Shown in pieces: positions 6,685 to 50,212 of a DNA stretch of 64,000 nucleotides. The stretch comes from an uncultured virus (IMG/VR IMGVR_UViG_3300018080_000168) (lineage: Duplodnaviria > Heunggongvirae > Uroviricota > Caudoviricetes). Below the pieces are notes generated by a model. That model made no database searches and was not told where the DNA came from. It saw only the letters and a list, made by a program, of their open reading frames with translations. Position numbers and translations under genes: made by a program. The stretch is taken from IMG/VR virus record IMGVR_UViG_3300018080_000168. One strand, written 5' to 3'. The stretch's first letter is position 1. Every line of letters starts with the position of its first letter.

Positions 6685-6734
6685 GAGAGAACGGTCTACC
6701 GCTAATAAATAGGCGTTGAAAACAGGTGATTAGA

Positions 6735-7796: not shown

Positions 7797-7855
7797 CGAC
7801 TTTATCATACGCCCGACACCTTTGGTGGTGGTTGGTTGGAAAGAAGGTGAAACAA

Positions 7856-8305: not shown

Positions 8306-8310
8306 TATGA

Positions 8311-8748: not shown

Positions 8749-8780
8749 GGAAAGAAATCTTCTTTCCTTCTTTCTCTTTC
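8747..8780 (+). terminator. Stem-loop with pyrimidine tract
   Basis: AAGGAAAGA-AATCT-TCTTTCCTT followed by a T/C run. Confidence 0.5.
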
Positions 8781-8794
8781 TCGGAGGGTAATAA

Positions 8795-10311: not shown

Positions 10312-10377
10312 GTTTAATGAAACAGCAAATATAGACGAAAAACCTACCCTAAACGTCTATAAATTACAACTTTGAAA

Positions 10378-13497: not shown

Positions 13498-13501
13498 TAA
13501 A

Positions 13502-15523: not shown

Positions 15524-16942
15524 ATGACGATATATCCTCTCCGTGAGCCAGATTTAACAGGTCTCGATTGGCAAGAAGATGTAATATGCCAAGTCGATTT
15601 TGCTACTGCAGAACCTGCTGGTCCTACTGCTGGGGATAGATACATAAACACTGTAACAGGAAATTCTTCAATTACCGCACAGCCAGTAACAGCTGATTAT
15701 ATCTACGAATGGAATGGTTCATATTGGCTTGAAACTGTACCAGACCTTGCAACAGCTGTCTTTGAACAGTGTTCTGGAACTTTTTTGTTTTATAACGGAG
15801 CAGCATGGGTTCCATTTGGCTCTGGTGTTGCTCATAACTCACTTTCTGGATTGGATGGTGGCCAAGCAGTACCATCAGAATATTACCATTGGATTGGAAG
15901 TGAATATGTTGATAGATTCTTAAGAGATGGCTCAATAGCAATGACAGGCGATTTAGATGTTGGACAAAACGACATAATCAGAACAAAATATGAATGGCAA
16001 AAGCCTGTTAAAGATAGGATACATAACTATACACCAGGAGCTTTCCCACCACCAACTGTTGGTGATAGATACATTATACCATCATGGTATGCTGGAGGAG
16101 GTGCTTGGGCTGGACATCAAAATGAAATAGTCGAATGGCAAGGAGCTTGGGAATACACTACACCAACTGAAGGAATGGCTCTTTGGGACAAAAGCAAAAA
16201 TGAATTAGTTTGGTGGAATGGCTCTGCATGGATAAAAATACCAGAATATGAAACATTTGATTGGCAAAAACCAGTAAAATCGTGCTTTCTCGGAATTCCT
16301 CCTGGAGCACCCTCATTAGGAGATAGATATCTTGTACCAGTTGGTGCAGGAGGAGCATGGACAGGACATGATACTGAAATTGCAGTTTGGGAGATAACAG
16401 AAGTTGGAGCGATATCAGTCGTTTATAATTGGGTATTTTATACACCAAGTGTCGGTTGGGCTGTCTTTTGTCCTGCAAATCCTCCTTCACAGCCAATGAA
16501 TTATTTCTATTATTTTGATGGCACAAACTGGAAAAGATGGGAAGCCTTTCCATTAACATTTACTTCAAGTGCTCTTACTGAAACACAATATAGTGGAACA
16601 ACAAATTGGCAAACAAAAACTGCTGATGGAATTCCTAATCCAAATGGAGACTATATTGTATTCTTTTCCTGCCAATTTGGTGGCAGTAGTAAAGTAACAG
16701 AATTCGATTTGAGAATTTGGGATGCATATACCAGTACTGAATTATTATTGCACCAAATGGTGCCATCTTCGCCATTCAATATCGGACCTGGCTCACACTA
16801 TCCAATAATAGCAGCACAAATTCCTGTCTTCGGTCTTTCGCATGCTGGTCTGCATAATTTTGAATTGCAATTTAGAACGAATACAAGTACCAAAACTGTT
16901 GCAATCAAAAATGCAAGAATGATAATATGGAGGATTGGATAA
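15524..16942 (+). CDS. Fibre protein with three DUF2793-like repeats
   Basis: Three WQ..V...P..GDRY(I/L)...W....P modules. Confidence 0.65.
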   Translation: MTIYPLREPDLTGLDWQEDVICQVDFATAEPAGPTAGDRYINTVTGNSSITAQPVTADYIYEWNGSYWLETVPDLATAVFEQCSGTFLFYNGAAWVPFGSGVAHNSLSGLDGGQAVPSEYYHWIGSEYVDRFLRDGSIAMTGDLDVGQNDIIRTKYEWQKPVKDRIHNYTPGAFPPPTVGDRYIIPSWYAGGGAWAGHQNEIVEWQGAWEYTTPTEGMALWDKSKNELVWWNGSAWIKIPEYETFDWQKPVKSCFLGIPPGAPSLGDRYLVPVGAGGAWTGHDTEIAVWEITEVGAISVVYNWVFYTPSVGWAVFCPANPPSQPMNYFYYFDGTNWKRWEAFPLTFTSSALTETQYSGTTNWQTKTADGIPNPNGDYIVFFSCQFGGSSKVTEFDLRIWDAYTSTELLLHQMVPSSPFNIGPGSHYPIIAAQIPVFGLSHAGLHNFELQFRTNTSTKTVAIKNARMIIWRIG

Positions 16943-18378
16943 TGGCTGGACAATATGGTTACTTAAAAACACCTGTAAATATTCCTAAATTAGAATTAGA
17001 GATTATCGCACAATCATTTTCCCAAACTTTAACATATATCCAATGGACAGACCCATCATTAACCATACAATTTTCAGGAGACTTGACTCCAACAGAAGTT
17101 ACTACATTGGATACTGTTGTAGCAAATCACGATGGACTTCCTTTGACCGAATACGATTACTTCTGTAAGAATTGTGCATATAATTGGCAAGACAGAAATA
17201 TCAATCCGCCTACAAGCTGTCCAATATGCAGCAGTACAGAAATAATCACACAATCATCTATACCTACAGATGGAATTATCGTCATAAAAGAATTCAATGG
17301 TTCAGGCACATCTGGTCGTGTAAAAGACCCAGGAAGTGAAACTGGAAAATATCTCAAAGATGATGGCACATGGGGAGACCCACCAGGAAACCCACCTCCT
17401 GTTACAACTGTATTCACCAGAACTGGTGATGTAGTTGCCCAAACAAGTGATTATGATGCAGAACAAATTGACAATACACCAGCTGGTAATATTTCAGCTA
17501 CAAATGTACAAGATGCTATCGATGAGTTAGATGATGAGAAATTGAACATTGATGGCACAAAAGCAATGACTGGCAATCTTGATTTCGATGATAGTTACAA
17601 GCCAATAAATATCACAGAGCCAACAGAACCAGACCAAGCGGCAACAAGAAACTATGTTATAGGCAATAGTGGTATTCCAAAAGTAAAAGACAAAGATTTA
17701 ACAATACCGCCATTGGGAACAAATTGGGAATTATACATTGTTGGAGTAGGTGCAAGTAGCCTATGGTCAGGACATGATAACGAACTTGCATATTACAAAA
17801 ATGGTTGGCACTTCTTTACACCTTATGAGGGAATGACTGTTTATGTTGCAGATGAAGATAGATATTACTTTTGGACAGGCTCTACATGGACAATCATTAA
17901 TTTAACTTATTTTGGTTCTGGGAGTGCTACAGATGGTCAAATCCCCAAAGCAGATGGCTCTGGTGGCATTGCTTGGGAAGATGAAGGTGGAAGCAAAGGT
18001 ATAATACCATTCCCTTTACATTGCAGTGGTGGTGCAGGATATTCTGCAGAACAGACCATATATATTGGTCCGCCAGGAGTTTTTGCAGCTGTAGCATCTG
18101 CTCTCACAAGATTTCCAGCTGGTACAATAAAGAGAATAACTGCAAGAATTACAACCAATACTACAGATACAAACAGTACAATCAAAGTTTATGTAAATAG
18201 TGCAGCACAAGGAACAGGTCTTACATTTGCTTCAGCAGAAACAGGCCAAAAAACTCAAACGGAGAACATAACTATATCAGATGGCGACAATGTTTGTGCT
18301 CAAGTCGTTATAGGAACAGGAGGTCCGCAAGATGGTATATACATTAAGGAAATTACCATTGAATATGAACCAGCATGA
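16942..18378 (+). CDS. Fibre protein with a Zn ribbon, a DUF2793-like module and a C-terminal beta domain
   Basis: CKNC..CPIC; ATNVQDAIDEL; YIVGVGASSLWSGHDNELAYY..GWHFFTPYEG. Confidence 0.65.
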   Translation: MAGQYGYLKTPVNIPKLELEIIAQSFSQTLTYIQWTDPSLTIQFSGDLTPTEVTTLDTVVANHDGLPLTEYDYFCKNCAYNWQDRNINPPTSCPICSSTEIITQSSIPTDGIIVIKEFNGSGTSGRVKDPGSETGKYLKDDGTWGDPPGNPPPVTTVFTRTGDVVAQTSDYDAEQIDNTPAGNISATNVQDAIDELDDEKLNIDGTKAMTGNLDFDDSYKPINITEPTEPDQAATRNYVIGNSGIPKVKDKDLTIPPLGTNWELYIVGVGASSLWSGHDNELAYYKNGWHFFTPYEGMTVYVADEDRYYFWTGSTWTIINLTYFGSGSATDGQIPKADGSGGIAWEDEGGSKGIIPFPLHCSGGAGYSAEQTIYIGPPGVFAAVASALTRFPAGTIKRITARITTNTTDTNSTIKVYVNSAAQGTGLTFASAETGQKTQTENITISDGDNVCAQVVIGTGGPQDGIYIKEITIEYEPA

Positions 18379-25160: not shown

Positions 25161-25509
25161 TTACTTCCTCCACAATTTCAGTTACCATGTCCAGCATCTC
25201 CAAAGTTTCCTGTATTGGTCTATTGCCAATTTCAGAAATGATGTTCCAAAATAAAGCCTTTTCGTTTCTATCTTTGGCATTGTAATCACAGCAAACTTTG
25301 ATGTCTGTCATTGGACAATCTTTACATGCATAAAGATGGCAAAAAGCACATGGACGTGAGTTCCAAGTTCCAGATTTTTCAATTTCAACTCTCATTAATC
25401 TCAGCTTTACTATTGTCCATTGTTTCGCCATTTCGAAATCTTTTATGTCTGGTAATATGCCATTGGCTTTGTAATTGTTGATTTCTTCAATCTTTATTTT
25501 CTCACTCAT
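25144..25509 (-). CDS. Cys-rich hypothetical protein
   Basis: CAFCHLYACKDCP..CC. Confidence 0.55.
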   Translation of the reverse strand: MSEKIKIEEINNYKANGILPDIKDFEMAKQWTIVKLRLMRVEIEKSGTWNSRPCAFCHLYACKDCPMTDIKVCCDYNAKDRNEKALFWNIISEIGNRPIQETLEMLDMVTEIVEEVNVKDA

Positions 25510-26255
25510 CTTATCAAATCCTTTCTCATTTCATAATATTTCAACAACTTTTCAAACTCCAAAGAACCCATCTGCCTCATCTTTTCAACTCTTTCTTTAT
25601 CTTTTTTCAGGTCTTGAATACTCAATTGAAGATATCTGGCTGTAGTAGTCAAAGAAGAATGACCAAGGTTCATTTGCAATGCTCTTATGTTACCGCCATT
25701 GTTCAAATAATCTACTGCAAATCCATGTCTAAACATGTGCGGATGGACCTTTTTTTCAACACCAGCATCTCTTGCATATTTAGTACACAAATATCGTACT
25801 TGATGGGGTGTAATTCCTGTTTTGTTACTTTTAGTGATTAATTGCCCAGATTTTCTTTGCTCTATTGTAACAAAAATTTTCAGTAAGTCAAGTAATTCAT
25901 TGTCTAATGGCACAGCTCTTTGTTTGCTTCCCTTTCCTATGATTAGCAATATTCTGGCTTCCCAATCAATATCTTCTATTTGAACCCCAGGGATTTCCAT
26001 TTTTTTCCATTTATAAGTATCTTCTCCTTTTATTATTTCTGGAGTTTCTTCATCTGGAATACAATTTTTCGGAATTTCTTTTACAGATATTCTTGCTCCA
26101 TTTTTCGTAATGTATTCTTCTGTTTCTCCAACTACTTCACCAACACGTAAACCATTATGTGCCATAAGCATGAATATAATCCTATCCCTCATATTCTCTG
26201 TGGGAATAGCCTTAATGATTTGGCTCATTTCATCATGTGTCAAATACTTCATCAT
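25506..26255 (-). CDS. Tyrosine recombinase (Xer-like catalytic domain)
   Basis: GLRVGEV, GKGSKQR, HPHMFRHGFA, LGHSSLTTTARY: full R-K-H-R-H-Y set. Confidence 0.92.
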   Translation of the reverse strand: MMKYLTHDEMSQIIKAIPTENMRDRIIFMLMAHNGLRVGEVVGETEEYITKNGARISVKEIPKNCIPDEETPEIIKGEDTYKWKKMEIPGVQIEDIDWEARILLIIGKGSKQRAVPLDNELLDLLKIFVTIEQRKSGQLITKSNKTGITPHQVRYLCTKYARDAGVEKKVHPHMFRHGFAVDYLNNGGNIRALQMNLGHSSLTTTARYLQLSIQDLKKDKERVEKMRQMGSLEFEKLLKYYEMRKDLIR

Positions 26256-29445: not shown

Positions 29446-29946
29446 TCAATCAGCCTCCTTCAAAGTATCGGGGGGAGATAGTTGGCCTATACTAATTGTC
29501 ACATTAGCTATTGATGTCGCTTCTGCCTGTGCTTGCAACAAATCTATAATCATTTTTTCTGGTACGAGTATTTGTTTCTGTGTTACAACTTTCTCTAATC
29601 CAGAATTAAGCAAAAGCCCTGTACATGATGAACAGGGTGTATGTCCAAACAAATACAAAGTACCACCTTCGACCTTTGAGCCATGCTTTGCAGCATTTAC
29701 AATAGCATTAGCTTCTGCATGTACAGATGGACAGCATGGGTCATGTGCAGAATTTCCAGGAATAGAATCCGACCTTGCACATTTCCTACAATGGGGATAA
29801 CCAGCTGGTGGACCATTGTAACCAGCTGAAACTATCCTTTTGCCAATCACTATTATTGCTCCAACTTTTACTTTGAGACATTTGCTTCTCTTGCTTACTG
29901 CTTCTGCTATTCCCAAATAGTATTCATCATCTTTCACATTTTTCAC
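29446..29946 (-). CDS. dCMP deaminase
   Basis: SKC..VGA, GYNG, HAEANA, PCSSC. Confidence 0.92.
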   Translation of the reverse strand: MKNVKDDEYYLGIAEAVSKRSKCLKVKVGAIIVIGKRIVSAGYNGPPAGYPHCRKCARSDSIPGNSAHDPCCPSVHAEANAIVNAAKHGSKVEGGTLYLFGHTPCSSCTGLLLNSGLEKVVTQKQILVPEKMIIDLLQAQAEATSIANVTISIGQLSPPDTLKEAD

Positions 29947-30146
29947 CTCAACATTTTTTTGAACAAATCTAATCCAATAAATTTGACAAGCATACCATCA
30001 ATATCCCCTTTTTCTGCTTCCTCTTTGAGCAATTTCAAATTGTATGAAACAGTAGATGGTGGTAATCCCAATTTTTGAGCTATCTCTTTATTGTTATATC
30101 CAACTGCTCTCAATTTCACAATTTCTTTCTTGTTTTCAATTCTCAT
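29943..30146 (-). CDS. HTH DNA-binding protein
   Basis: GYNNKEIAQKLGLPPSTVSYNL. Confidence 0.8.
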   Translation of the reverse strand: MRIENKKEIVKLRAVGYNNKEIAQKLGLPPSTVSYNLKLLKEEAEKGDIDGMLVKFIGLDLFKKMLR

Positions 30147-31152
30147 TTTTCTTCACCATCCTACATAACTGACATAATTCAGTATCAATAATCCCTTCTC
30201 TACGCATATATTTACATCTTGGAATTTTGTATGGATATCTCTCGAGACATCCAACAGTATATCCAATTTGATATTCAGTTATGCCTTCATTATATTCTGG
30301 GTCGTTCATGAATATAGTTGCTATTTCGTCTCTGTCTTCTTTTGGCATAATCTGATTAGGATTATTGGACTTCCATTCTCTCCAAATATATGCTACTATT
30401 GCAACTCTTTGCATGTGCTCTAAATGTATTCCAGATTCTTCTAACTCTATCAAATCAGCTATGCAGATAGGGACTTCTGCATTTTGGACAAATTCAGATT
30501 TCTTTGCTTTTTCTCTAATAAAGCATTTTGAAACTATTTCTTCAGGAACTTTCCACAGCTCGAATTGGAAATCTTCTTGGTAAATTGGTCTTGAGTGTCT
30601 TTTTCTATCTTCTGGAGCAACGATTTCATCCAACAGCACTTTGCAAAATTTCTTTTTGCCACCAACTGCTCTTACAACACTTCCCATACCTTTATCATCC
30701 CAACTAATTTTTCTTGGGTCTATATTCCATCTCCAAAACTCATGGTTCTCCTTCTTAATTTTTGTTCTATGCAGAATATCTTTGGCTAATTTCCTTGTTA
30801 AAAATGTTCTCAGCTGTCTCCAATCAACATCCGACTTTGCATCAAGCCAAATTTGGAAATGATATCCCTTGCCACCAGAGTCATAAACATAGAAAGGAAT
30901 GCCAGAGTCTTTCAGTCTTTTTGAGAGCAACAAAGCAGTAAAGTAAAGAGTATGCTTATCATCGATATCCAAATCGAAAAGCAATTCATTTTTGCATAAA
31001 GTCCTGAATTCGGCTCTTGGATGCTTTTCCCAGTCCCAATCTTCATAAAGAGTCCAAGTACCAGGTGCTCCACTTGGAGTAGCAAGACATAATCTCATTG
31101 GGAAATCTGTAATTTCCATTTTTCGTATTTTATCAATCCACTCTTTTTGCAT
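30136..31152 (-). CDS. Archaeo-eukaryotic primase, PriS-PriL(C-terminal Fe-S domain) fusion
   Basis: FDLDID, SGGKGYH, NIDP; C-terminal PICI..HLEHMQR..YQI..PRC..C..C; start placed after the polymerase stop. Confidence 0.8.
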   Translation of the reverse strand: MQKEWIDKIRKMEITDFPMRLCLATPSGAPGTWTLYEDWDWEKHPRAEFRTLCKNELLFDLDIDDKHTLYFTALLLSKRLKDSGIPFYVYDSGGKGYHFQIWLDAKSDVDWRQLRTFLTRKLAKDILHRTKIKKENHEFWRWNIDPRKISWDDKGMGSVVRAVGGKKKFCKVLLDEIVAPEDRKRHSRPIYQEDFQFELWKVPEEIVSKCFIREKAKKSEFVQNAEVPICIADLIELEESGIHLEHMQRVAIVAYIWREWKSNNPNQIMPKEDRDEIATIFMNDPEYNEGITEYQIGYTVGCLERYPYKIPRCKYMRREGIIDTELCQLCRMVKKNEN

Positions 31153-31153
31153 C

Positions 31154-34100
31154 TCACTCCACCTTCTCGAAAATTTTTCTAACTTTTGTCTTCCAATTCT
31201 TCTTTTTTGGCCATCTGGCTGAAACTCGAAAAATATCTCCATGTTCAAATGATAAGTCGGGATACTTGTTTGCTTCCCTTGGGTCGACAAAGCCTCTGAA
31301 ATATTGGTTATCTTCAGATACAGCTTCAAATGTTATCTTTCCATTTATTGTTTTTACAGACTTGGCAATCCAAATCAATTCACCAGTTTCTCCAATTCTT
31401 TTTCCTCTTGCAGAAGCAAGAAGCCATAATGGTTTGCCCATCAAATATTCTGCATAAGGTTGAATTGGCATATCATTATTTATAGAAGCATTAAATTCAT
31501 CCATAAATACAAAATTATCTACATAAACCTTGGTAATTTTATTGCCATATGGATTGACTCTTCCTTTAACTAAAATAGGAAATCCACCTTTTTCTCCAAG
31601 TTCAAAGTATTTCCTATCCCATTCTTCTTTGTATAAATTGTACACCTCTGGAGCAAAATGCAACAAAACAAAATCTGTTTCATCAATGCTATTAGCATGC
31701 AGATATTTGGCACCTTCCATTCCTACATTATCATCTGCAAAAGCACCACCCTCCATACCAACTATTTTCCAATTAACATTTTCTACTGAAGGTATTATTG
31801 CTCTTAAAGTAACTTCTACATTTTCAAATTCTTCAAAATCAATTTCATTTATTTTAGATGGTGAAATACCCACAAAGTATTTTTTAATATCTTCATCAAC
31901 TCTTTCAAGAACAGTGTCTTCTACAGGATACGGTATTACAGAGGAAACAAATGCATCTTTTTGACTTTCAGTTATATCGGGATAAAATTCCCATGGCGAT
32001 TCTCCAACTCCATCTTTGACAACACCCCATTGTGCTAATGTCTTTTGCCCTCTCCCAACTCCTTTATCAAACATCGACATTAATGAAACTCTATTATCAA
32101 GAATCCAATTCACATTCGGACAAATAGTCCTGAATGCTTGAGCTCGAGCAAGATTCTCCCATTCAGCCTTTGAACATCTTACTCTTCTTGCGAAATCATA
32201 TATATCTGTATATGGAGCACTATCAACTATTTGTTTAGCAACCTTTTCACGCATACTTTTTACTGATTTTAGTCCCATATAGAAAGAATTTTCTAAAATT
32301 GCCCAATCAACACCACTGCAATTAACATCTGGCATTTCTGCAATGAATCCAAGGCGGTCCAGCTCTCTAATATAGGAAGAAATTTTATGGTCAACCTTTT
32401 CTGCTCTGAGCAGTGCTAACATAAACTCTTTGGGGTAATATGTTTTTAAATACATACATCGATAAGCAACAACTGCATATTCTGCTGCATGGGCTTTGTT
32501 AAAGCCATACGAACCAAAGAAAATAAGTCTATCAAATATTTCCCTGGCTAATTCCTCTGAACAATCGTGGCGTTGTGCTCCCTGTATGAAGACATCTCTT
32601 TGCTTGGAAAAAGTTTCAACACCTGTAGAATGTTTAATAATTTTCCTTATAGAATTAACTTTGCCCCAATCCATGCTGCCTAACTGCCTCAAAACCATTA
32701 ATATTTGTTCTTGATATATAGGGAATCCCAAAGTCTTCTCTAATACCTTATCATAAATTGGATGCAACTTTTTGACTTCCTCAAATCCATTCCTTGTTCT
32801 GATAAAATCAGCTGCAAGACCAGAATGCAGCGGACCAGGACGATGTAAAGCATTCAAAACCAATAAATCCTCAAAACTGTCTATTTTCATGCTTCTGGCC
32901 ATTTTAGTTATTCCAAGTGATTCAAATTGAAATACACCCAAAGTATTACCAAGAGAAAATTGCTCCAAAACTTTTTGGTCTTCAATATTAATCCTGTTCC
33001 AATCAATCTCTATCCCTTTTTCGAAAAGCATCTCCTTGGCTTCTGCAAGAATTCCTAATGTTGTTAGTCCTAAAATATCCAATTTAAGAATTCCAATCTC
33101 TTCAGCATCGCTTCCTTCATAAGCAGTTACCAGTCCCTTTGAAGCTCTCATTACAGGACTATAATCGTAAATTGGTGTTGGAGTAACTAATACTCCAGCA
33201 GCATGAGTACCATAATGTGATAAATGGCCTTCTAATTGCTCTGCAAATTTTCTTACTTGCGGATATTTCCTATCGAACCGTTTGCAAATATCAAACTGGT
33301 CAAAAGAATCTGAAATTGTGTAATCAACTCTTGCATCTCCTCCAGACCTTTGAATAATAGCCTGTGTAACTTTGTTTACCTCATCATATGGTATTGCTAA
33401 TGCTCTACTGATATCTTTCAAGCAAGACCTTCCTGTCAATGAAGCCCAAGTGCCTAAATGAATTACAGAGTCCTCTCCATATTCTTCCTTAAGATACTCT
33501 ATAACTTCATGTCTCCTATCATACTGAAAATCCATATCGATATCTGGCAAATCAGTTCTTGTTGGACTAATAAATCTTTCAAAATAAAGCTCCATTTCAA
33601 TTGGATTAACATCGTGAATGTAAAGGCAATAAGCAACCAAACTTCCACCAACAGAGCCTCTCCCTGGACCTAATTCAATTCCTCTATCTCTACACCAATT
33701 AAGTAAGTTATAAACAAGGATAAAGTAATCTGAAAAAGTTTTCTCTATTATCATCTCCAATTCATACTCTAATCTTTCTCTGTATTGTTGGTCTTGTTCA
33801 GGAATCCTCTCCTTTAATCCTTTCTTGGCTAAATCCTCTAAATATTCTGCTGTATCAGCATATTGCTTTGGTATATTAGGTTTTGGAATAATATTTTTTT
33901 GTTGTGGAATTTGGATATCAATTTCTTCTGCTATTGCAAGAGTATTCGCTAATATCTCATCAATTTTTTCCTTGCTAATTTGTTTTATGAGACTCTCTCT
34001 AATTTCCTTTTCTGACATCAAGAAAAGTGTTCTAACAGTATATGGTTTGCCCTTTCCTCCAGGCTGAGATTTCTTAATAATATCTTGAACTTGTACTCCA

Positions 34101-35338
34101 TTTTTGGTTAAATAATGAACATCATTAGAAACAATTATTGGCCTACTGTATTCTTTAGACAGCTCAAAAACTAAATTGTTATGATTAAGTTGCTGTTCCC
34201 ATGCATGTGGTTGAATTTCGAAATAAAAATTCTCTCCAAAAGCCTCAACCAAATCAGAAAGTATTTCCTTGGAGAAATAAATTATAGAATTTGTACAAGC
34301 AGTAGTAATTACTATATTGCCATCCTTTCCTACACTACATAGCTGTTCAGCAGTTACTCTTGGACGTCTGTAAAATTGTTGCTCTCCTAAAAATGTCAAA
34401 TACATTAACTGTTTGTATCCTTCATAATTTTTTGCCAACAAAACAGCATGGCGACTTTTTTTATCATCTGGGTGATTTATGACATAAGCCTCCATTCCAA
34501 TTATTGGTTTTATTCCATTAGAAATGCATTCATTAAAAAATTTCCAGCATCCTGCCATGTTTCCATGGTCAGTTATGGCCAAAGCCTTAAAACCCATAGC
34601 CTTGGCCTTTAATACAATTGCTTTCAGCCTACCAAAAGCATCTCCCTTGGAGTGCTCTGAATGAAGATGCAAATGTACAAATCCTTGTTCTTCATCAGTT
34701 TCCTCAAACTCTGATTCATCTATCCCATAAAGTACACCCTTGGAAGTTTGCTCTATATGTCGATTTAGACCTTGTTCATGGTCTTTCTTTTCTCTAATCA
34801 AATTTGCATCTTCCAAAATTTTTACAAGATAGTCCCACCCTCTTTCCCAATGGGGTTTATTAGCCTCTCTTGAACGCAAAACTGCAGATGGGTGGATTAA
34901 CGGTATAACTAATTTCATGCCATATTTTGGCTTTGCAAACAAGCTCCTTCCTATTCTTCTTGTTATGCCACTTTCCCCAGTTAATTCGTGTAGAGAGGAA
35001 TTTCCAACTGCAACTAATATATCTGGATTCAATTCCTCAATTTGCCTAACCAAATAACCACTACAGGCTTCTGCATACTTTTCACTGAATTTATTCCCTG
35101 GAGGTCTGCATTTGACAATATTCGTTATTCCATAGTCAAAATCCAAAGTTGCTAATTTTTCAGTCAAAATTTTCCCTGCAGGACCAACAAATGGTTCACC
35201 TTTCTTGTCCTCTTGTGCACCTGGAGCTTCTCCTATGAACAAAACCTTTGGAGAGGCAACTCCTTTATAAATTACAGGATTACTACGTGTCTTGTAGAGT
35301 TCACATTTTTTGCAATTGTAAATTTCATCATCAATCAT
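31154..35338 (-). CDS. dnaE: Family-4 uracil-DNA glycosylase fused to a family C DNA polymerase (Pol III alpha)
   Basis: [51 protein letters not shown]. Polymerase: [33 protein letters not shown]. Confidence 0.95.
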
Positions 35339-35687
35339 CCTGAACCCTCATTTCTTCAGACACATGTGCGACAACTCTCTTCTGCACACCAGTCTTCTGT
35401 AATTCAAAAACTCCTTGCTCTATCTTTATTGCCATCATAGTTAATACACAAAAATTGGCCATATCCAAAAGTTTGTCCTGAACTGCATACATATCCTCAC
35501 AGTGATTATCCCAAATTAGTGTCTTTAATCGACAGTAACACGAATGGATGTCTGCGAAGTTCAAAACTTTTTGGTCGATAAAGTCCTTTGGTTTCCATTG
35601 GTCTCCATATTTTTTAGATTTTTCTTGCATGATTTGCTGTTGGAGTTGGAATATCTCTTGCATCAAGTTCAAGTCATCTTGGTTCAT
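35331..35687 (-). CDS. Nmad1/DUF1599-like all-alpha protein (MazG-like NTP pyrophosphatase fold)
   Basis: EKSKKYGDQW...RLK...DKLLDMANFC. Confidence 0.6.
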   Translation of the reverse strand: MNQDDLNLMQEIFQLQQQIMQEKSKKYGDQWKPKDFIDQKVLNFADIHSCYCRLKTLIWDNHCEDMYAVQDKLLDMANFCVLTMMAIKIEQGVFELQKTGVQKRVVAHVSEEMRVQDD

Positions 35688-36336
35688 CTTCTTCACCAAC
35701 CTTTATCATTTTGGCATATGCACTGTCTGGATACCAATCGTCTTTTTTGATTATTTCATCCATGAAAATTTTTATTTGCTCCACCAAAGGATTTAACCAT
35801 TCCAATGCTTCTGCTCTTTTAACAAGAACTTCGAATCCTCCTTTCATTACAGGAATAATAGCATTATTCCCCATTATTTTTTCTTGGATACAGTAAACCA
35901 TGAGCGATAAGCTGTCTGCAGCCTCAACTAACTGTCCTTCAATATCCTTGGATTTAGCAGAAACCCAAATTTCATATCTCCTTTCAGCAATTTCCTTTGG
36001 CAAACAAGATAGCATTTCCTTCATACAAGCTTTATTGATTATTTGGATTTGCTCTAATAATCCTTTGCTACCATGCTTTACATTGTAAGGCAAATCACTG
36101 GAAATACTTTCCTCTGCGTCATGCATCAATGCTCTGCTGACTGCTTTGGCTCTGTCCACCTTCACTCCATTTGCTTCTGCATAATCACAAAGCAAATCAA
36201 CATAGAAAGCAACAAAGAAAGAATGCTCTGCAACACTTTCCTTGGAAATTTTAGGAACAGTAGAGTATCTGATAACATGGCTCAAATGCTTATGGCTACC
36301 AAGCATAAACTGTAGCATACTTGCTGTGCTTTCCAT
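35674..36336 (-). CDS. HD-domain 5'-deoxynucleotidase (YfbR-like)
   Basis: RY..ESVAEHS, ALMHDAEE..SDLP, AD. Confidence 0.88.
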   Translation of the reverse strand: MESTASMLQFMLGSHKHLSHVIRYSTVPKISKESVAEHSFFVAFYVDLLCDYAEANGVKVDRAKAVSRALMHDAEESISSDLPYNVKHGSKGLLEQIQIINKACMKEMLSCLPKEIAERRYEIWVSAKSKDIEGQLVEAADSLSLMVYCIQEKIMGNNAIIPVMKGGFEVLVKRAEALEWLNPLVEQIKIFMDEIIKKDDWYPDSAYAKMIKVGEEDEPR

Positions 36337-36492
36337 ATTAAGACCTCAAAACATTTTTGCTAATTAGTATGCAGACTAAAGATGGGTCTTCATTCAACTC
36401 TCCGACTGCTTCTTTCAATCTTTCCATATCAGGAAAGGTATCTGTCCAAATATGACCATCTGACCATACTTTTGCTACTTTATATTGGGTTT

Positions 36493-37017
36493 TCAATACA
36501 TCATCCCCTTTGCCATATTTTTCAGCTTGTTTATTAGCTGATTTGTAGTTGCACATTCAACATGTGCACACTCACTTAACATGATGTTCCAATTTCCAAC
36601 AGGTCCAGAATTCAAAAATACAATAGGCTTATTCAATGCATAAGCATATCCCATTTCCCAAACTGTTCCTATATCTGGTAACATTACGACACTTGCTCCA
36701 GCTTCAAACTGCCTTTCCTCATCCTCAATCCTTGCAATCACAGTTGCATTCTTTTTTCCACGATTTTCATCGTCAACCCAATCTAATGCTAATAGCTGAA
36801 CACCTCTATATTCAGTGATTGCTATCATGGCATCACTGGAGCGAATGGCATTGACATTGCTTTTGAATATCTGTTTTGTAGTCCCTTTATCGCTGTCATG
36901 CATAGGTGAGAAAACATGGAAATCCTCAACAAGAGCATCCCTGACTCGCTCGACTAATTCTGACTGATGGCGATTGAAAAATGGTCCTGCCAAATACACT
37001 CGCATTTTTCTTTTCAT
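36493..37017 (-). CDS. Nucleoside 2'-deoxyribosyltransferase / nucleotide N-hydrolase family protein
   Basis: VYLAGPFF, VFSP, DIGTVWEMGYAYALNKP, NIML. Confidence 0.88.
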   Translation of the reverse strand: MKRKMRVYLAGPFFNRHQSELVERVRDALVEDFHVFSPMHDSDKGTTKQIFKSNVNAIRSSDAMIAITEYRGVQLLALDWVDDENRGKKNATVIARIEDEERQFEAGASVVMLPDIGTVWEMGYAYALNKPIVFLNSGPVGNWNIMLSECAHVECATTNQLINKLKNMAKGMMY

Positions 37018-37029
37018 GAGTTTCCTCTC

Positions 37030-37791
37030 CTAATGGATGATTTGCCTTCCGTCTTCTGTCTTCTCTCTCCCACACCATTGGCTTGGAACCATGCACTTTC
37101 CATCTGTCTCACAAATAGGCTTGATATCAGCCCACCAAGGTCCCATTTTCCTTTCAACTTCATCAATCATCAAGTCAACTATTTGCCTGAACTCTCCTTG
37201 GACTCTAACACAGCTTCTCTTCACAACCATCTGTCGCCATGCACGATAGTTCGCTCCAACCATGATATCAGTTGTAATGTTCGTTGGTAGAAGGCCACGT
37301 GCTACTTCTGGATGCTCACCTGAATGCAAATTCTCTTGGTAAATACTATCAATCTTTTTCATTGCCTCGTAAAAGGCTTCTGGGTTTTTGCAATTTGGTG
37401 GCTGATGGAACATTTTTCGATTCGCAAAATCTTCTTTTGTTACCACTCTCATACCTTGTTGGGAATAACTGAATCCAACTCTGTTTCGAACTATCTGATG
37501 GGTAAAGGCTCGAGAAACATTCCCCAAGAACCAGTTCAGCTGTATGAATTCAAATGCATTCCCAAGAACTTCCTTTTTAACAACATCCAATATTTCCTGT
37601 TCCTCTGAATTCACAGGGTCGACTTCACCAAGAAGATATTTCTTCCAGAAATCCTCTCCAAACTGTTTGGCATCTGCTTGTATATCCTTTACCATGACAT
37701 CCCAAATCAATTTCACTAATTTCTCTGGCTGTGGTGTCCAATTCAATAAGACTACAATCGGCTTTGCTCCAAAATCTTTTTCATTTTTCAT
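37030..37791 (-). CDS. thyX: Divergent ThyX-family flavin-dependent enzyme
   Basis: VSRAFTHQIVRNR..SYSQQGMR, EVARGLLP, ANYRAW..KR..QGE. Confidence 0.8.
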   Translation of the reverse strand: MKNEKDFGAKPIVVLLNWTPQPEKLVKLIWDVMVKDIQADAKQFGEDFWKKYLLGEVDPVNSEEQEILDVVKKEVLGNAFEFIQLNWFLGNVSRAFTHQIVRNRVGFSYSQQGMRVVTKEDFANRKMFHQPPNCKNPEAFYEAMKKIDSIYQENLHSGEHPEVARGLLPTNITTDIMVGANYRAWRQMVVKRSCVRVQGEFRQIVDLMIDEVERKMGPWWADIKPICETDGKCMVPSQWCGREKTEDGRQIIH

Positions 37792-38041
37792 CTTCCAATC
37801 CTCCTAAAATTTCAGATAACTCTTTGAATACCTGAACGTAAATTGGTAATATCCTATAAAGTCTAACATTGTTGTATCCTACAAGTGTTTCGACAAGACC
37901 TACATTTTTCAATTTATTGGCTCTCCTATAAACAGTCTGCTTACAGAAACCTGTCTGCTCCATTACATCTTTTGTTGAAGCCCATTCCCTATCATGCTGG
38001 GCTATGGCCACTAACATACTTATATCAGAGCCACTAATCAT
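37781..38041 (-). CDS. Winged-helix DNA-binding protein
   Basis: STKDVMEQTGFCKQTVYRRANKLKNVGLV. Confidence 0.75.
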   Translation of the reverse strand: MISGSDISMLVAIAQHDREWASTKDVMEQTGFCKQTVYRRANKLKNVGLVETLVGYNNVRLYRILPIYVQVFKELSEILGGLEDEK

Positions 38042-38781
38042 TTTGCACCCCTTTTTCTTTTTGGAATTGGCTTTCCATCAAGGAACAAATCTTCAATTCT
38101 TTTTGCTGTTTTTTCTCCAAGGATTCCATGCCACCATCTACTTTCTTTCCAAGCCTTCTTTGTCTTGTATGGCTCATTTTTTATGTAAACTCGACGGTGC
38201 TCCATTGCTCTAAACAATTCATTCGGAATCGGATACCTTTCTGCAAGTTGCTTCGCTTTGTCATCGCCGACACCATAGAATTTGTATATCCCAGCAATAT
38301 CATTATAATCGTCAGCTCTATGAATTGGTCTATCAACAAAATTTATAGTTTCAAGTGATAATGCAATATCGACCATGAATTGGACTGCCTTTGCTCTGCT
38401 ATCAAACTTGAATGTTGGAAGCAAAAAGTTTCTCTTTCTCCAATGTGAAGAAACCCACTGATGAATTTCTCTTGGTGTACGTTTGTTTTCATCTCTCGCA
38501 ATAATTAATGCTTTTGGATTAACTGTAGCACACATATACATAGCCCAAATTTCATCCATAAGATGGCCATTGAAAAACGAATTTTGAAAGTCTTGATATT
38601 CCTTAAAAGTTACTACAAATTTCTCACAGCCTTCAGGTTTCAAATGGTAATCACCATATTCGAGGGTTGCAACTTCAATATCGAGTATTCCTCCTAAATT
38701 TTCATTTATTTTTTGGAAATGCTCTTTCATTATCGAATGCTCTGCACTGTCTATCCAAACCCTAATCTTCCCTGTTCTCAT
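38038..38781 (-). CDS. ERCC4/XPF-family nuclease with HhH
   Basis: IDSAE, LEYGDY, TFK (for ERK), DF.NS..GHL, YGVGDDKAKQL. Confidence 0.7.
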   Translation of the reverse strand: MRTGKIRVWIDSAEHSIMKEHFQKINENLGGILDIEVATLEYGDYHLKPEGCEKFVVTFKEYQDFQNSFFNGHLMDEIWAMYMCATVNPKALIIARDENKRTPREIHQWVSSHWRKRNFLLPTFKFDSRAKAVQFMVDIALSLETINFVDRPIHRADDYNDIAGIYKFYGVGDDKAKQLAERYPIPNELFRAMEHRRVYIKNEPYKTKKAWKESRWWHGILGEKTAKRIEDLFLDGKPIPKRKRGAK

Positions 38782-38966: not shown

Positions 38967-39899
38967 TCATTTACCATTTGCAACACCCTCGAATAATTTT
39001 ACAATCATCTTCTCTCGCTCTGTCAAATGCTCTTGAATGACATCCCACCAGCATATTTTCCACCATTTGCAAAATCTGCAATGCCAATCACTGTCAACAT
39101 TCATTTCTCCGTTAATATCAAAAGCAGCCTTGAATGGCCTTTCTGGAATTTCTCTTGCTTCAACCAATTTAATCAAATCTTCATTTTGCTTAATGATTTG
39201 CTCGAAGAATTTCTTATCTGGCCAAACTTTGTACCATCTTCTTTCACTTGTATTTTTATTGTAATAATGCAAATATCCATATTCAAATTCACCTAATATC
39301 AAATAAGATTGTATCTGTGCATAATGCTCTAAAGACGGTCTATCTTCATAACCATAATAGTTTATTCTATGCTCTAATTTAGGAGCACCCAGTTTACATC
39401 CCTTGCAAAATCTTGCATTCGCCCACAGTCTTTGCCCACAGTTTGTACAATACCATCCTTGATTAGTTTTCCAAGCCCTTTCTTTGCAACTTTTACACTC
39501 AATTGGAACATCTTTTCCATTGAAATGAATTAAAAAATCTATGCTTCCAGAAATAAGATATTTCTTCGACCGAATTCTAAATTGTGCTCTGTCTGGAGAA
39601 GGCAAAAGTCCAGCATACAAAAGCCATTCACCCAATTCCTGCTCAACTGCGTCTCCCATTCTCCAAATAGACCTTTTATTCATCCAGTCTTCATTTGGCT
39701 CTTCTTTTATAAGAATTTCTCCAAATTCTTTTTCCATGTCTTCATGTGACATCCAAGAGAAATACCTGGAGCGAATACATTGCATCAATGCTGAAGGATA
39801 GTGATAAAGTGTATCCTGTGGATTATCAGGAATTATTATTTTGGATAAAACAAAATCTTGGACAGCTTTGTCCTGTTGGTATTTCATTTCCCATTCCAT
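38967..39899 (-). CDS. Cas4-like PD-(D/E)xK exonuclease with a Zn-ribbon insertion
   Basis: PSALMQC, GSID, ECKS, QIQSY, CRFC...C; inserted CTNC..CKGC. Confidence 0.8.
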   Translation of the reverse strand: MEWEMKYQQDKAVQDFVLSKIIIPDNPQDTLYHYPSALMQCIRSRYFSWMSHEDMEKEFGEILIKEEPNEDWMNKRSIWRMGDAVEQELGEWLLYAGLLPSPDRAQFRIRSKKYLISGSIDFLIHFNGKDVPIECKSCKERAWKTNQGWYCTNCGQRLWANARFCKGCKLGAPKLEHRINYYGYEDRPSLEHYAQIQSYLILGEFEYGYLHYYNKNTSERRWYKVWPDKKFFEQIIKQNEDLIKLVEAREIPERPFKAAFDINGEMNVDSDWHCRFCKWWKICWWDVIQEHLTEREKMIVKLFEGVANGK

Positions 39900-39911
39900 T
39901 TTTCTGTTCCT

Positions 39912-40021
39912 TGCCAGGTAAAGACAGAGTGTGAGAACCCAATCTCGGGGGAGAAAAGGCCAAGGCAACTCTGTCTTCTTTTGGACTCTCTGGCAGCCCA
40001 TTGGTTATGCCTTGTTGGGTT
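39912..40021 (-). ncRNA. Candidate structured RNA leader with crossing helices
   Basis: Four complementary pairs (6, 10, 7 and 7 bp) in 110 nt. Confidence 0.4.
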
Positions 40022-41531: not shown

Positions 41532-41732
41532 TCAATCTTCATCATCATCACCTGCGATAATCTTTATCATGCCCTTCATTTTCATTTTCAGCTCCTCTAA
41601 TTTGTTATGCATTTCAGTCAGCTGTTTATGCAATTCCTCATTCTCTTCAGACAATTTGGAATAGCATTTTTCACATACTGACAAATCGTTTGCACCGCAC
41701 TTATCACACTCTACATGCACATCTAATCCCAT
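41532..41732 (-). CDS. Zn-finger plus coiled-coil protein
   Basis: CDKC..CEKC; GAGGTGA RBS. Confidence 0.55.
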   Translation of the reverse strand: MGLDVHVECDKCGANDLSVCEKCYSKLSEENEELHKQLTEMHNKLEELKMKMKGMIKIIAGDDDED

Positions 41733-43120
41733 GGTACACTCACCTCTTGATTTTCTAAATATTCTTGACCAAGTGGTCCAATCCAAACAACCCAAGATTT
41801 CCCCTTCTTTTTCGATTTTACTATTCCATATTTCAGAAGGTCTTGGTAGAATCTTTTTACACCTGCTTCATTGCTGAACCACCCTCTTTGGACCATTACT
41901 TTTTTCAATTCAGTTACACCAACAACTGTTTCCAAATAAGAAAATGCACCTTTACTTTTCAAATATTTTAACACTTTTTCTGTCTTTTGGAGATTTTTGG
42001 TCTTCATTGGTAACACCGAATAATCATCATTAGTATATCTGTTCACCCAAATAACAGAATCTGCATAAGCAGTTGAAAAAATAGGGAATGCTTTTTTGAC
42101 ATCATCAACAGCAATATCAATGACTTCCCTTTGAGAATCTCTAATAATACTCATTATTGTAGAATATCTAATCAACTGTGTTTCTATATCAAAATATGCT
42201 ATTTTGAACATCCAAGACGGCTTTGGACCATGCATAGCAGAAAAATCCTTGAGACTATGCATACAACTCTTAACATAGTCCATAGTGCTTTCAGAAAGCC
42301 AAAAATCATAATTTCTTTGCCTCAAATATCGCAAATAATTCACAGCCTTTACAAAATTTTTTGGTTTCGGTGATTGTTTGCCTGGTGCATTTGTACCAAA
42401 TCTTTTCGTTGTTTCCTTCTCTGACAAGGGAAAATTCACACATATTATCTGGCTTCTTCTAATATCTCCTTCGGTCATAATTGACATTGGCACTTTCCTT
42501 GCTGGAAATCCTTGAACCAATGTACATTCAGGATAATAAGAGCAGTGGAAAGATTCTGGAATTCTTACCTGTGGCTTGGAAATTTTATTTGTGCCTATCC
42601 TGGATAAAGTTCCACGCAGAAGCTCCCTAATCTTCCTATTTTCACTGCTATCGAATGTGTAAACACTCAAAACTTCGTCCATTATAACGAAATCTGATGA
42701 CAGCTCTCCTGGAAATGGTTCATATTTCCACTTTCCACCCTCCTGCCATTTCTCTGTAGAGCCAATGAGTTGGTCGTAATGCGGTGTAGACTGTCTGAAA
42801 CAAACACTGTAAGGATTTAATCGTGATATTCCTGTCAATATTGCTGATTTGCCACTCCCAGGTTCACCTACAACTGTAAGATTTAGACGCAGCTCATCAT
42901 ATGTTTCCTCACCATGTATCAAATTCCAAGCTTCTAATTTTTCTTCCAAAGGCTCATTCCATTGGATTGGACCTTTCCGCTTACAAGCATTAGCCAATAG
43001 GCTCATACAGGCCACGGATATTGGTCCTATGCTCTGCTTGTTCTTTACCATAGGGAAGGCAGGTAACATCCAAGACAGAACTGTCTGAAAGTCCTGTTTT
43101 GCAAAGTCATCTTTACTCAT
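41723..43120 (-). CDS. Divergent MCM-like AAA+ ATPase (putative replicative helicase)
   Basis: LNLTVVGEPGSGKS, VIMDE, V.VDDVKKA helix, wH-like C-terminus. Confidence 0.55.
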   Translation of the reverse strand: MSKDDFAKQDFQTVLSWMLPAFPMVKNKQSIGPISVACMSLLANACKRKGPIQWNEPLEEKLEAWNLIHGEETYDELRLNLTVVGEPGSGKSAILTGISRLNPYSVCFRQSTPHYDQLIGSTEKWQEGGKWKYEPFPGELSSDFVIMDEVLSVYTFDSSENRKIRELLRGTLSRIGTNKISKPQVRIPESFHCSYYPECTLVQGFPARKVPMSIMTEGDIRRSQIICVNFPLSEKETTKRFGTNAPGKQSPKPKNFVKAVNYLRYLRQRNYDFWLSESTMDYVKSCMHSLKDFSAMHGPKPSWMFKIAYFDIETQLIRYSTIMSIIRDSQREVIDIAVDDVKKAFPIFSTAYADSVIWVNRYTNDDYSVLPMKTKNLQKTEKVLKYLKSKGAFSYLETVVGVTELKKVMVQRGWFSNEAGVKRFYQDLLKYGIVKSKKKGKSWVVWIGPLGQEYLENQEVSVPWD

Positions 43121-46677: not shown

Positions 46678-46950
46678 CTAATCCAATTCAGCAAATACTC
46701 CCTCCTGTAGCTTGTCCTCACCACTTTTGCGAGTGTACATTTTGTATTCTGTAATCTGTCTCTTTTTCTTCTTTTTTGCTGTAAATTCCACCCAAAGGCC
46801 ACATTTAGAGCATTTGTCATAAAAATTATCTACTTGCCAAAACTCCAAAGTTTGTAAGCTGCAAGGTCCATCTTTGCTTTGGAATCCTTTCAAAATATGG
46901 CCACATTCAGGACATGGCATCTCAAAGAGGATTTCATCAAACATTCCCAC
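46678..46950 (-). CDS. Zn-ribbon protein
   Basis: MGMFD..CPEC..FQSKDGPC..CSKC. Confidence 0.6.
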   Translation of the reverse strand: MGMFDEILFEMPCPECGHILKGFQSKDGPCSLQTLEFWQVDNFYDKCSKCGLWVEFTAKKKKKRQITEYKMYTRKSGEDKLQEGVFAELD

Positions 46951-47750
46951 TAATATCCTCCTCCAATTTCCTCTAAAAAGATTTCATCAGACATGTATGT
47001 AACTCTGTACATACATGATTGGTTTGCTGCTCCATCTCTATCTTTGTCAACAGAAAGTGTCCAAAATTTTGTCCCAATAGAAGCCTCCCAATCTTGAGCA
47101 TCCCATTTATTCTCTATCTTGATTGAGCCAAAATAAAGTAATGCCAAACCTGCATGTTCAACTCCTCGGCCACCTGCTGGACTTTCATACTTGCCTCCTC
47201 CTCTAACTTCGGAAATAGCAAGAACAGGCACAACTCCTGACAATCTTTTGGCCAATTCACCTGTCCACTCTCTCACATCAGCTTCTGGAACTGCTTTTCC
47301 ATGGCCTGTTGGCTGGGCAAGTATAGTGGTAAGAGAATCTACAACAACAAGGTCAGGCTTCATCTCCATAACATATTTCAGGATTGTTTTTACAGCTCTC
47401 GGTGGTCCTGGTCGATAGGACTTCAAGTCAACAGTGTTTATAATGGGTGGATTAGGCTTTGGAGCGTCAAAACTATCTTCTCCGTATATGTATAGTACCT
47501 TTTTCTTTTGCTTGGCAAAATGGCCTGCAATAGTCCTTGCAAACAATGATTTGCCACACCCTCCTGGACCATAAAGAATTACCAAGCCTTCAGGCAATCC
47601 TCCACCTAATGCTTCATCAACACCAGATATGCCTGTTTTTATTCTGTTCGGCTCTCTTCTGGCTTTATTAAGCCTCATTTTAGCCTGTGTCCATTTCACT
47701 TCGTCTTTAACATCACCATCAAATGGCGACCAATTCTTTGGATAACTCAC
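46950..47750 (-). CDS. RecA-superfamily ATPase (RadB/KaiC-like)
   Basis: TGISGVDEALGGGLP, GPGGCGKS, VVVDS, GGRGVEH. Confidence 0.88.
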   Translation of the reverse strand: MSYPKNWSPFDGDVKDEVKWTQAKMRLNKARREPNRIKTGISGVDEALGGGLPEGLVILYGPGGCGKSLFARTIAGHFAKQKKKVLYIYGEDSFDAPKPNPPIINTVDLKSYRPGPPRAVKTILKYVMEMKPDLVVVDSLTTILAQPTGHGKAVPEADVREWTGELAKRLSGVVPVLAISEVRGGGKYESPAGGRGVEHAGLALLYFGSIKIENKWDAQDWEASIGTKFWTLSVDKDRDGAANQSCMYRVTYMSDEIFLEEIGGGY

Positions 47751-49735: not shown

Positions 49736-50212
49736 TTATTCTCCTATTTCCTCTTTCCAATACTTTTTTATTCTTTGTTGAGCCTGTACAAGAGTTTGCA
49801 AATTTGCTATATTCAGCTTCCTGCAGGACTCTAAATTTGCTTCAGAATTCATTATTGCATAGTTTCTTAAGGATGCAGGTGTAATATCACCACAATATTT
49901 ATGTACAATTCTTTCAATTTGTCTATTTGATAACATATCTTTTGTTCCAGGAAAGATATAATTGCTTGAGTCCAATCTATGCTCCATCCAATCAATTAGA
50001 ACTTCATAGGTATTTACAGAAATGCTTATTTTCCTCATTCCAATTTTCAATTTGCAGCTTGGCAATATATCAAATTTTGTCAAATCCACTAATTCAGAAA
50101 CTTTTAGCCCTTCAATACCAAGAAGCAAAAATATGCATCTGTCTCTACTCTTCCTAATTTTGTTGAAAGCGGTATTGAATTCCTCGGTACTTATTATATG
50201 CCTTTTGGCCAT
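49736..50212 (-). CDS. Degenerate tyrosine-recombinase-like protein
   Basis: RDRCIFLLLGIEGLKVSELV, YIFPG, TPASLR; lacks the catalytic R, H and Y. Confidence 0.7.
   Translation of the reverse strand: MAKRHIISTEEFNTAFNKIRKSRDRCIFLLLGIEGLKVSELVDLTKFDILPSCKLKIGMRKISISVNTYEVLIDWMEHRLDSSNYIFPGTKDMLSNRQIERIVHKYCGDITPASLRNYAIMNSEANLESCRKLNIANLQTLVQAQQRIKKYWKEEIGE

Follow-up and report, generated by a model that had tools for sequence, protein, structure and literature searches.

In ThyX, which makes deoxythymidine monophosphate (dTMP) from deoxyuridine monophosphate (dUMP) on flavin adenine dinucleotide (FAD), His53 stacks the folate and hydrogen-bonds Tyr91, gating the folate site (PMC11940539). 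The enzyme can also bypass folate and make dTMP from free formaldehyde: a carbinolamine forms at N5 of the flavin, and dUMP, once activated by Arg174, attacks it (PMC8316439). The subject here is a divergent ThyX-like gene (37030..37791, minus strand, ATG start, 253 residues) of an uncultured Caudoviricetes virus (IMG/VR IMGVR_UViG_3300018080_000168). The viral genome is a 73,934-base record from sediment, whose first 64,000 bases are the stretch analysed, called the window; the remainder is L285. The encoded flavoprotein is a member of the Thy1 fold family that fails the orthodox ThyX signature. We tentatively propose, as a possibility, that it joins a sugar aldehyde, here 2-deoxyribose, to C5 of dUMP without folate, giving a polyol-substituted uracil nucleotide that replaces part of the thymidine.

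The closest described systems are phages with modified thymidine. The DNA of the Pbunaviruses F8 and 14-1 contains thymidine derivatives of mass 362 and 390, which replace about one quarter of T, apparently at TG (PMC12191111). The DNA of SP-15 contains C-linked 4,5-dihydroxypentyluracil made before replication, and the phage has two Thy1 genes; a title cited in the same paper reports that ribose label enters the base (PMC5977210). The linkers of Carin-5 and YerA41 measure 88 and 104 Da (PMC12686479; PMC9023294). The route to the SP-15 base has been open since 1972-78, and the available literature on Carin-5, YerA41 and Pbunavirus generally assumes a hydroxymethyluracil precursor and leaves the pathways unsolved.

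Thymidylate synthase homologues outside housekeeping dTMP supply have been described in other settings. PolB, a methylase of uridine monophosphate and dUMP in polyoxin biosynthesis, is likewise a ThyX homologue, but it retains His53, RHR, Ser and Tyr, which the window protein lacks, and by the title of its structure entry it still methylates. Phage dUMP and deoxycytidine monophosphate (dCMP) hydroxymethylases and the flavin-using dCMP hydroxylases (RB69 gp48) follow a like logic, a thymidylate synthase homologue being rewired to act before replication, whereas their fold, that of ThyA, is unrelated and their products are known and small.

Residues lost and retained in the ThyX-like protein

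The protein matches Pfam Thy1 (PF02511) with an E-value of 1.5e-29 and 103.6 bits, against a curated cut-off of 24.8. Its AlphaFold model, built on a 127-sequence alignment, has a mean pLDDT of 90.9 and supersedes an earlier one from 9 sequences (pLDDT 69). Every match listed by Foldseek is a ThyX-family structure, the best being M. tuberculosis ThyX (TM-score about 0.66, about 19% identity).

Residue equivalences were set by profile alignment to T. maritima ThyX (tag offset 14), whose numbering is used for the canonical positions. The segment LGNAFEF (residues 76-82; 37546..37566, minus strand) is the counterpart of the folate-stacking HxxxxEH, with Leu76 in place of His53 and Phe82 in place of His59. 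The segment RNRVGFSYSQQGMRV (residues 102-116; 37444..37488, minus strand) corresponds to RHR-x7-S-x-R-Y, with Asn103 for His79, Gly113 for Ser88 and Val116 for Tyr91, and the protein reads RNR-x8-G where the orthodox signature demands RHR-x7/8-S. Glu58 and all of the dUMP/FAD-binding arginines are present (Glu81 for Glu58, Arg102 for Arg78, Arg104 for Arg80, Arg115 for Arg90, Arg165 for Arg147, Arg192 for Arg174), as are the motifs ARGLLP at 164-169 and NYR at 181-183. In the 127-sequence alignment, 16 positions are either invariant or conserved to at least 90%, and the protein retains every one of them. The first-pass annotation had reported His53, His79, Ser88 and Tyr91 as replaced by Leu, Asn, Gly and Val, and the profile alignment confirms each assignment; its further claim, that FAD and a nucleotide are still bound, is very likely right.

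Asn103 and Gly113 are each one base away from a His or Ser codon. Sequencing error was considered as their cause and set aside: the sole public contig that covers the gene (depth 14.8) is identical to the stretch, although it is possibly the source of the same DNA and so not independent, and two other runs miss the gene.

With the ThyX enzymes of T. maritima (TM0449) and M. tuberculosis the protein shares the fold, the equivalents of Glu58 and Arg78/80/90/147/174, and the ARxxLP and NxR motifs. It differs in the loss of His53, His59, His79, Ser88 and Tyr91, in an identity of about 19-20%, in its gene neighbours and in its place in a separate clade for which no cellular member was found. None of the solved structures from T. 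maritima, M. tuberculosis, C. glutamicum and PolB shares the substitutions, all of them retaining His53, RHR and Ser88; position 91 is Phe in C. glutamicum and Tyr in the other three.

A viral clade without His53 and Tyr91

A search of viral contigs with the window protein alone returned no relatives. Profile searches based on the window protein, to which annotated phages were added, gave 307 distinct sequences, 287 of them scorable, a set that is query-biased and partly redundant. His53 is absent from 174 of the 287. Tyr91 is found in only one of these 174 (Phe in 36), compared with 85 of the 113 sequences that keep His53. Position 88 among the 174 is Ser in 114, Ala in 35, Thr in 23 and Gly in 2, the last being the only two glycines among all 287; position 79 is His in 95, Thr in 45 and Asn in 11. 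Since His53 and Tyr91 are lost together, their loss defines the clade, while Ser88 to Gly is the least telling change because position 88 varies within the group lacking His53. The four substitutions, which had been presented as one set, are thus all real but of unequal weight: those at His53 and Tyr91 mark the clade, and those at Ser88 and His79 are tolerated within it.

In a FastTree phylogeny of 297 sequences, 200 fall into one divergent clade with support of 0.999 (second figure 0.977), and 83 of the 97 sequences outside it read H/H/S/Y. An IQ-TREE analysis of 22 divergent and 15 canonical sequences gave SH-aLRT 88 and UFBoot 94, just below the usual bootstrap bar of 95. The clade holds the window protein, P0002, Pbunavirus F8, 14-1 and R12, Wifcevirus ECML-117, Cronobacter Ss1 and Rhizobium TM30. 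The nearest relative of the window protein is P0002, which is 49% identical and retains His79 and Ser88; the window protein itself sits on a long branch (0.62-0.85). All 26 cellular hits from a pattern-limited scan of GTDB genomes are canonical, with His53 and Tyr91, and among the homologues retrieved the divergent clade was found only in viral and metagenomic sequence. The clade is a widespread viral group that most likely makes modified uracil nucleotides.

A long intein-like insertion lies in the SRAF/THQ motif of the divergent ThyX-like protein at L120:1-1998 and of protein P0093. Locus L227 carries two divergent ThyX-like genes (9295-10200 and 11533-12474), one on either side of a radical SAM gene in a single cassette.

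Alternative partner genes

A flavoprotein of about 300 residues adjoins the divergent ThyX in 66 of 88 clade loci (56 of the 61 that span at least 8 kb), compared with 0 of 78 canonical loci; in profile comparisons the structures closest to it are UDP-galactopyranose mutases (E 2e-6). This mutase-like protein is the unannotated gp65 of F8 (L084:13173-14174); it is also found in Wifcevirus and many uncultured phages, and 361 phage records match it. Uracil-DNA glycosylase (UDG) occurs in 20 of these 61 longer clade loci and an Nmad1-like gene in 18 of them, whereas none of 55 canonical loci has either. Further neighbours in related loci include short-chain dehydrogenases/reductases (SDRs), radical SAM enzymes, glycosyltransferases, kinases, dUTPase and dCTP deaminase.

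The window genome and locus L110 carry a nucleoside 2-deoxyribosyltransferase (NDT) and an HD nucleotidase instead of the mutase-like protein, for which the 73.9-kb genome as a whole gave no match (best E 1.7). In a reverse test, NDT alignment alone found 409 viral loci, and the best 80 of them were inspected. A divergent Thy1 lies within 3.4 kb of the NDT in 64 of the 80 and is missing from 16, and the mutase-like gene occurs in none. The 64 loci form 16 clusters at 50% identity, one of which has 35 loci, and some of their Thy1 proteins sit in the subclade of the window protein. A canonical ThyX stands alongside the divergent copy in 12 of the 80, all from the 35-locus cluster, so dTMP supply in these loci does not depend on the divergent copy. 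Because NDT and the mutase-like protein occur in separate sets of loci, they look like alternative partners. The NDT and mutase families both act at the anomeric carbon of a sugar. NDTs similar to that of the window were also seen in the Enterococcus phages VPE25, VFW and 9183 (H171-H180).

The same alternation is seen in the chemically studied phages. A search with SP-15 gp130 matched 10 of 50,697 phage records, Carin-5 and YerA41 among them, and the divergent Thy1 proteins of SP-15, Carin-5 and YerA41 have no equivalents of His53 and Tyr91. All three phages, whose thymidine carries pentyl linkers, have an NDT (that of Carin-5 falling outside the query alignment), a YfbR-type HD gene and SDRs, and lack the mutase-like gene. 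F8 and 14-1 have the mutase-like gene and neither NDT nor HD, and their only Thy1 is of the divergent clade. A second ThyX is present in SP-15 and a ThyA in Carin-5; YerA41, GXN1 and Va2 have neither.

With SP-15 (gp127/gp129/gp130/gp90) and its equivalents in Carin-5 and YerA41, the window virus thus has in common an NDT, a YfbR-type HD protein, a divergent Thy1, UDG and a deaminase. It differs in that their Thy1 proteins are about 400 residues long, have lost further arginines and give no pairwise alignment with the window protein, and in that those phages carry SDRs, glycosyltransferases and PolA, of which neither SDR nor glycosyltransferase was found in the window genome. The Wifcevirus 'thymidylate synthase' and the Pbunavirus proteins F8 gp59 and 14-1 ORF59 belong to the same divergent clade as the window protein, lack His53 and Tyr91, and are single-copy and encoded beside DnaE; their subclade is another one, and they are accompanied by the mutase-like flavoprotein and a HAD phosphatase without NDT or HD, the reverse of the window.

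Sixteen F8 genes were compared with those of 14-1 for the origin of 362 versus 390 and none was singled out (ThyX-like 94%, mutase-like 97%, HAD 80% identical), and an SDR as the cause of 330 versus 346 was dropped, YerA41 also having SDRs. Two annotations in this group can be amended. The Carin-5 gene resembling SP-15 gp130 is XPT09188.1 (L089:7998-9224) and not XPT09308.1, the one tabulated as thymidylate synthase (PMC12686479). YerA41_086 (L090:11380-11916), annotated as a mannosyltransferase, aligns as an NDT with its catalytic residues intact.

The gene run of the window virus

The ThyX-like gene is the first of a tightly packed minus-strand run. The NDT-like protein (174 residues; 36493..37017, minus strand; PF05014, E 7e-18) starts 12 bases past the ThyX-like stop. 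It retains Tyr8, Asp115, Glu121 and the NxM motif of the catalytic set, with Asn54 in place of the acid/base Asp of several solved NDTs. Tyr, Asp, Glu and NxM are conserved in five aligned NDTs, in which Asn occupies the position of the Asp of 6evs and of the unmutated 8qc0/8rh3, an exchange that may favour hydrolysis. An open reading frame (ORF) of 72 residues (36338..36556, minus strand) overlaps the end of the NDT gene and may not be a gene; it has no Pfam or PHROG match and no counterpart in the fetched loci. Next come a YfbR-like HD nucleotidase or deoxynucleoside triphosphate triphosphohydrolase (220 residues; 35674..36336, minus strand; PF12917, E 1.3e-27; PHROG 7076 'dATP triphosphohydrolase', E 1e-20), whose HD catalytic motif is intact, and an Nmad1 (DUF1599)-like protein (122 residues; 35331..35699, minus strand), weak in Pfam (E 0.078) and better matched by a profile of neighbouring genes from related loci (E 5.8e-15) and by Atlas features (0.92).

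The run continues with a protein of 1394 residues (31154..35338, minus strand) in which Pfam places a family-4-type UDG, with GEAPG and HPS motifs, fused to a DnaE-type DNA polymerase. UDG-PolA fusions have been described for T-modified phages (PMC13697223); the fusion partner is DnaE in the window virus. An archaeo-eukaryotic primase with small- and large-subunit-like parts (30136..31329, minus strand; Pfam) and a dCMP deaminase (29446..29946, minus strand; PF00383, E 1.4e-21), the predicted source of dUMP, complete the run.

A possible sugar-aldehyde transfer

With the dUMP/FAD half of the protein retained, the folate half lost and genes predicted to release deoxyribose next to it, a larger aldehyde is the simplest reading. 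The dCMP deaminase would supply dUMP, the HD enzyme would convert deoxynucleoside mono- or triphosphates to nucleosides, and cleavage by the NDT would free deoxyribose. The aldehyde might then be captured at N5 of the reduced FAD, as formaldehyde is in T. maritima ThyX, and C5 of dUMP, activated by the Arg174 equivalent, would attack; water would leave and FADH- would reduce the adduct to 5-(3,4,5-trihydroxypentyl)-dUMP. Kinases, perhaps those of the host, would give the triphosphate, the viral DnaE would insert it and the fused UDG would clear plain uracil, with ordinary dTMP coming from the host.

A broader proposal, put forward with still more reserve, is that all viral ThyX paralogues without His53 and Tyr91 are flavin-dependent C-C alkyltransferases that transfer a sugar to uracil. 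One chemistry would then cover both the modified thymidine of the therapeutic Pbunaviruses and the pentyl linkers found in SP-15, Carin-5 and YerA41, and the window virus would have a minimal version of it. The aldose is proposed to come from the NDT, as deoxyribose, or from the mutase-like flavoprotein, to be loaded on FAD N5 and to be moved to dUMP C5. Hand arithmetic (deoxyuridine 228 plus the aldehyde minus 16) gives 242 for formaldehyde, 346 for 2-deoxyribose, which is the YerA41 fragment, and 362 for ribose, which is the F8 mass; a mass of 330 requires the loss of one further oxygen.

The activity of the clade proteins is a prediction from sequence, fold model and gene neighbours, and the case for the window virus is weaker than that for the clade. 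The literature outside subscription journals, figures and bioRxiv supplements yielded no published measured activity or sugar-aldehyde transfer for these proteins, and PMC8989533 and PMC13307970 gave nothing further on them. If the proposal is right, it would name the missing enzyme and the donor-supplying partners of SP-15-type modification and would add a new C-C bond-forming flavin reaction. Many phage 'thymidylate synthase' genes would then mark modified genomes, including those of widely used therapy phages and genomes resistant to sequencing.

Evidence against the proposal and rival explanations

Several observations weigh against a sugar-aldehyde transfer. Tyr91 and Ser88 assist carbinolamine attack and expulsion of water in ThyX (PMC8316439); with both lost, no acid catalyst is identified in the window protein. 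His53 is retained in 22 of the 200 clade members. The SP-15 group Thy1 proteins have no pairwise similarity to the window protein (best E 1.6), their profile matches it at only 92% over 127 columns, and they are too divergent for the tree, so the link rests on the genes they have in common with the window virus and on residues lost in parallel. No common aldose yields the 14-1 mass of 390 by the reductive formula, a hexose fitting only if unreduced, and the F8 and 14-1 masses fit O-linked sugars on hydroxymethyldeoxyuridine equally well. The F8 and 14-1 groups are named by the authors who described them as an erythrose/threose alcohol and a circularised aldopentose derivative, found at TG alone (PMC12191111), and this confinement suggests a post-replicative step. 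Among the scanned ORFs of the window genome there is no deoxynucleoside monophosphate kinase, glycosyltransferase or SDR, and neither a ThyA nor a second Thy1; likewise, 32 of 32 genomes or records of the mutase type, the majority incomplete, carry the divergent gene as their sole thymidylate-synthase-like gene, with no second Thy1 and no ThyA. Loci L226 and L257 (about 7800-14500) have NDT and HD in a similar gene order with no Thy1 within 8 kb; as they also carry a kinase-like gene, a glycosyltransferase or methyltransferase, and UDG, they are possibly a ThyX-free variant of the module.

Avoidance of restriction sites adds to these points. GATC is absent from the window genome (210 expected), as are CTAG (92 expected) and CTWAG (CTAAG/CTTAG). 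CCGG, CGCG, GCGC, GGCCC/GGGCC, CTATAG, GGTACC, GTATAC and GTTAAC are also absent from the 74-kb sequence. Because sites containing T are fully avoided here and not in SP-15 (whose stretch avoids only T-free palindromes), Carin-5 or YerA41 (whose stretches show no avoidance of T sites), dense replacement of T in the window virus is unlikely, and any substitution would be partial. Partial substitution is possible, since F8 and ECML-117 also avoid some T-containing sites. As to protection specific to TG, all of the fully absent sites lack TG, yet GTCAC/GTGAC (4 against 43) and CTCAG/CTGAG (10 against 69) are strongly depleted as well. Across loci, avoidance of T palindromes is weaker in the NDT type than in the canonical type (median 0.95 versus 0.81, n=32 and 22, p 1e-5) and stronger in the mutase type (median 0.74); NDT-type loci do not avoid T-free sites either, and this contrast is not used as support because host and habitat confound it. 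Avoidance as strong as that of the window genome could help to identify the host.

A somewhat unlikely alternative is that the enzyme makes another C5-modified dUMP, such as 5-hydroxymethyl-dUMP, with water quenching the exocyclic methylene, or 5-hydroxy-dUMP from flavin and O2; sugars would be added later, and NDT and HD would recycle or deplete normal nucleotides. The clade, the neighbourhood and the paralogy fit it equally. Kropinski et al. suggested that SP-15 gp130 is a hydroxymethyl-dUMP synthase (PMC5977210), and flavin has taken the place of folate in ThyA homologues that hydroxylate dCMP (PMC13326640), a precedent that also counts against sugar-aldehyde transfer. The F8 and 14-1 masses are compatible with O-linked derivatives restricted to TG (PMC12191111), and glycosyltransferases follow close relatives in loci L112 and L094. 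Hydroxymethylation would, however, still require the lost folate site, the C-linked pentyl chain of SP-15 and the alternation of NDT with the mutase-like protein would be left unexplained, and neither a glycosyltransferase nor a hydroxymethyldeoxyuridine kinase was detected in the window genome. That the protein is still a thymidylate synthase, serving viral replication with a remodelled one-carbon site (folate bound otherwise, free formaldehyde, or an archaeal pterin carrier), is unlikely. No other thymidylate-synthase-like gene was detected in its genome or, as noted, in 32 of 32 related ones, dCMP deaminase and UDG alongside make up the standard dTMP-supply set, the core arginines are intact and T-containing sites are avoided as in unmodified DNA. 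None of the 26 cellular hits shares the residue losses, though, and Tyr91 mutants of T. maritima ThyX are 100- to 1000-fold slower (PMC8316439, PMC11940539). Moreover, the divergent copy stands beside a canonical ThyX in the 12 NDT loci, and single-copy status is common also to F8, 14-1 and YerA41, all with modified thymidine.

Decay is improbable: the protein would have a base-modifying ancestry and be decaying or inactive in the window virus, in line with its long branch, the rare Gly88 (2 of 287), a genome without mutase-like partner, kinase or tailoring enzymes, and restriction-site avoidance that is unrelieved. The gene nevertheless has an unbroken frame and is closely packed with NDT, HD and Nmad1, the 16 conserved positions are all kept, the model is confident, and NDT and HD have preserved their catalytic motifs. 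The first-pass annotation had suggested dCMP as substrate or a reduction without carbon transfer; either is highly improbable. The loss of one-carbon-handling loop residues would leave the flavin as a reductant, but the uracil-activating Arg174 equivalent is retained, the genome encodes a dCMP deaminase and the UDG-polymerase fusion, and related loci encode dCTP deaminase and dUTPase. The genome has none of the C-containing sites CCGG, GCGC and CGCG, it is T and not C that is modified in every chemically studied phage with such a gene, and reduction without carbon transfer found no support. The more general suggestion, of a chemistry other than ordinary folate-dependent dTMP synthesis, is very likely right, given the separate clade without a cellular member found and with its own nucleotide- and sugar-handling neighbours, and given that its chemically studied members come only from phages with modified thymidine.

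Other features of the genome

The bacterial-type DnaE with its fused family-4 UDG adjoins an archaeo-eukaryotic primase. Further genes of the virus also look archaeal, namely an ERCC4 nuclease (38038-38781), a Cas4-like protein (38967-40001), a KaiC/RecA-like ATPase (46950-47750) and a weak MCM-like match (41723-43120); the virus is probably archaeal. Two tyrosine-integrase-like genes lie on the minus strand at 25506-26255 and 49736-50212. A capsid candidate (6726-7769, plus strand) gave weak leads to the PM2 P2 family (Atlas 0.80-0.81) and strong matches to unnamed viral clusters. Two DUF2793 or tail-fibre-like proteins and an ATP-dependent DNA ligase are encoded at 15524-18378 (plus strand) and L285:7190-8473.

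The genome is probably complete. The 50-base repeat at both ends falls in a low-complexity Ser-Pro tandem repeat, and the IMG/VR class is linear. The Ser-Pro-coding repeat itself occupies both genome ends (1-294 and about 73570-73934) and is probably one ORF split by assembly.

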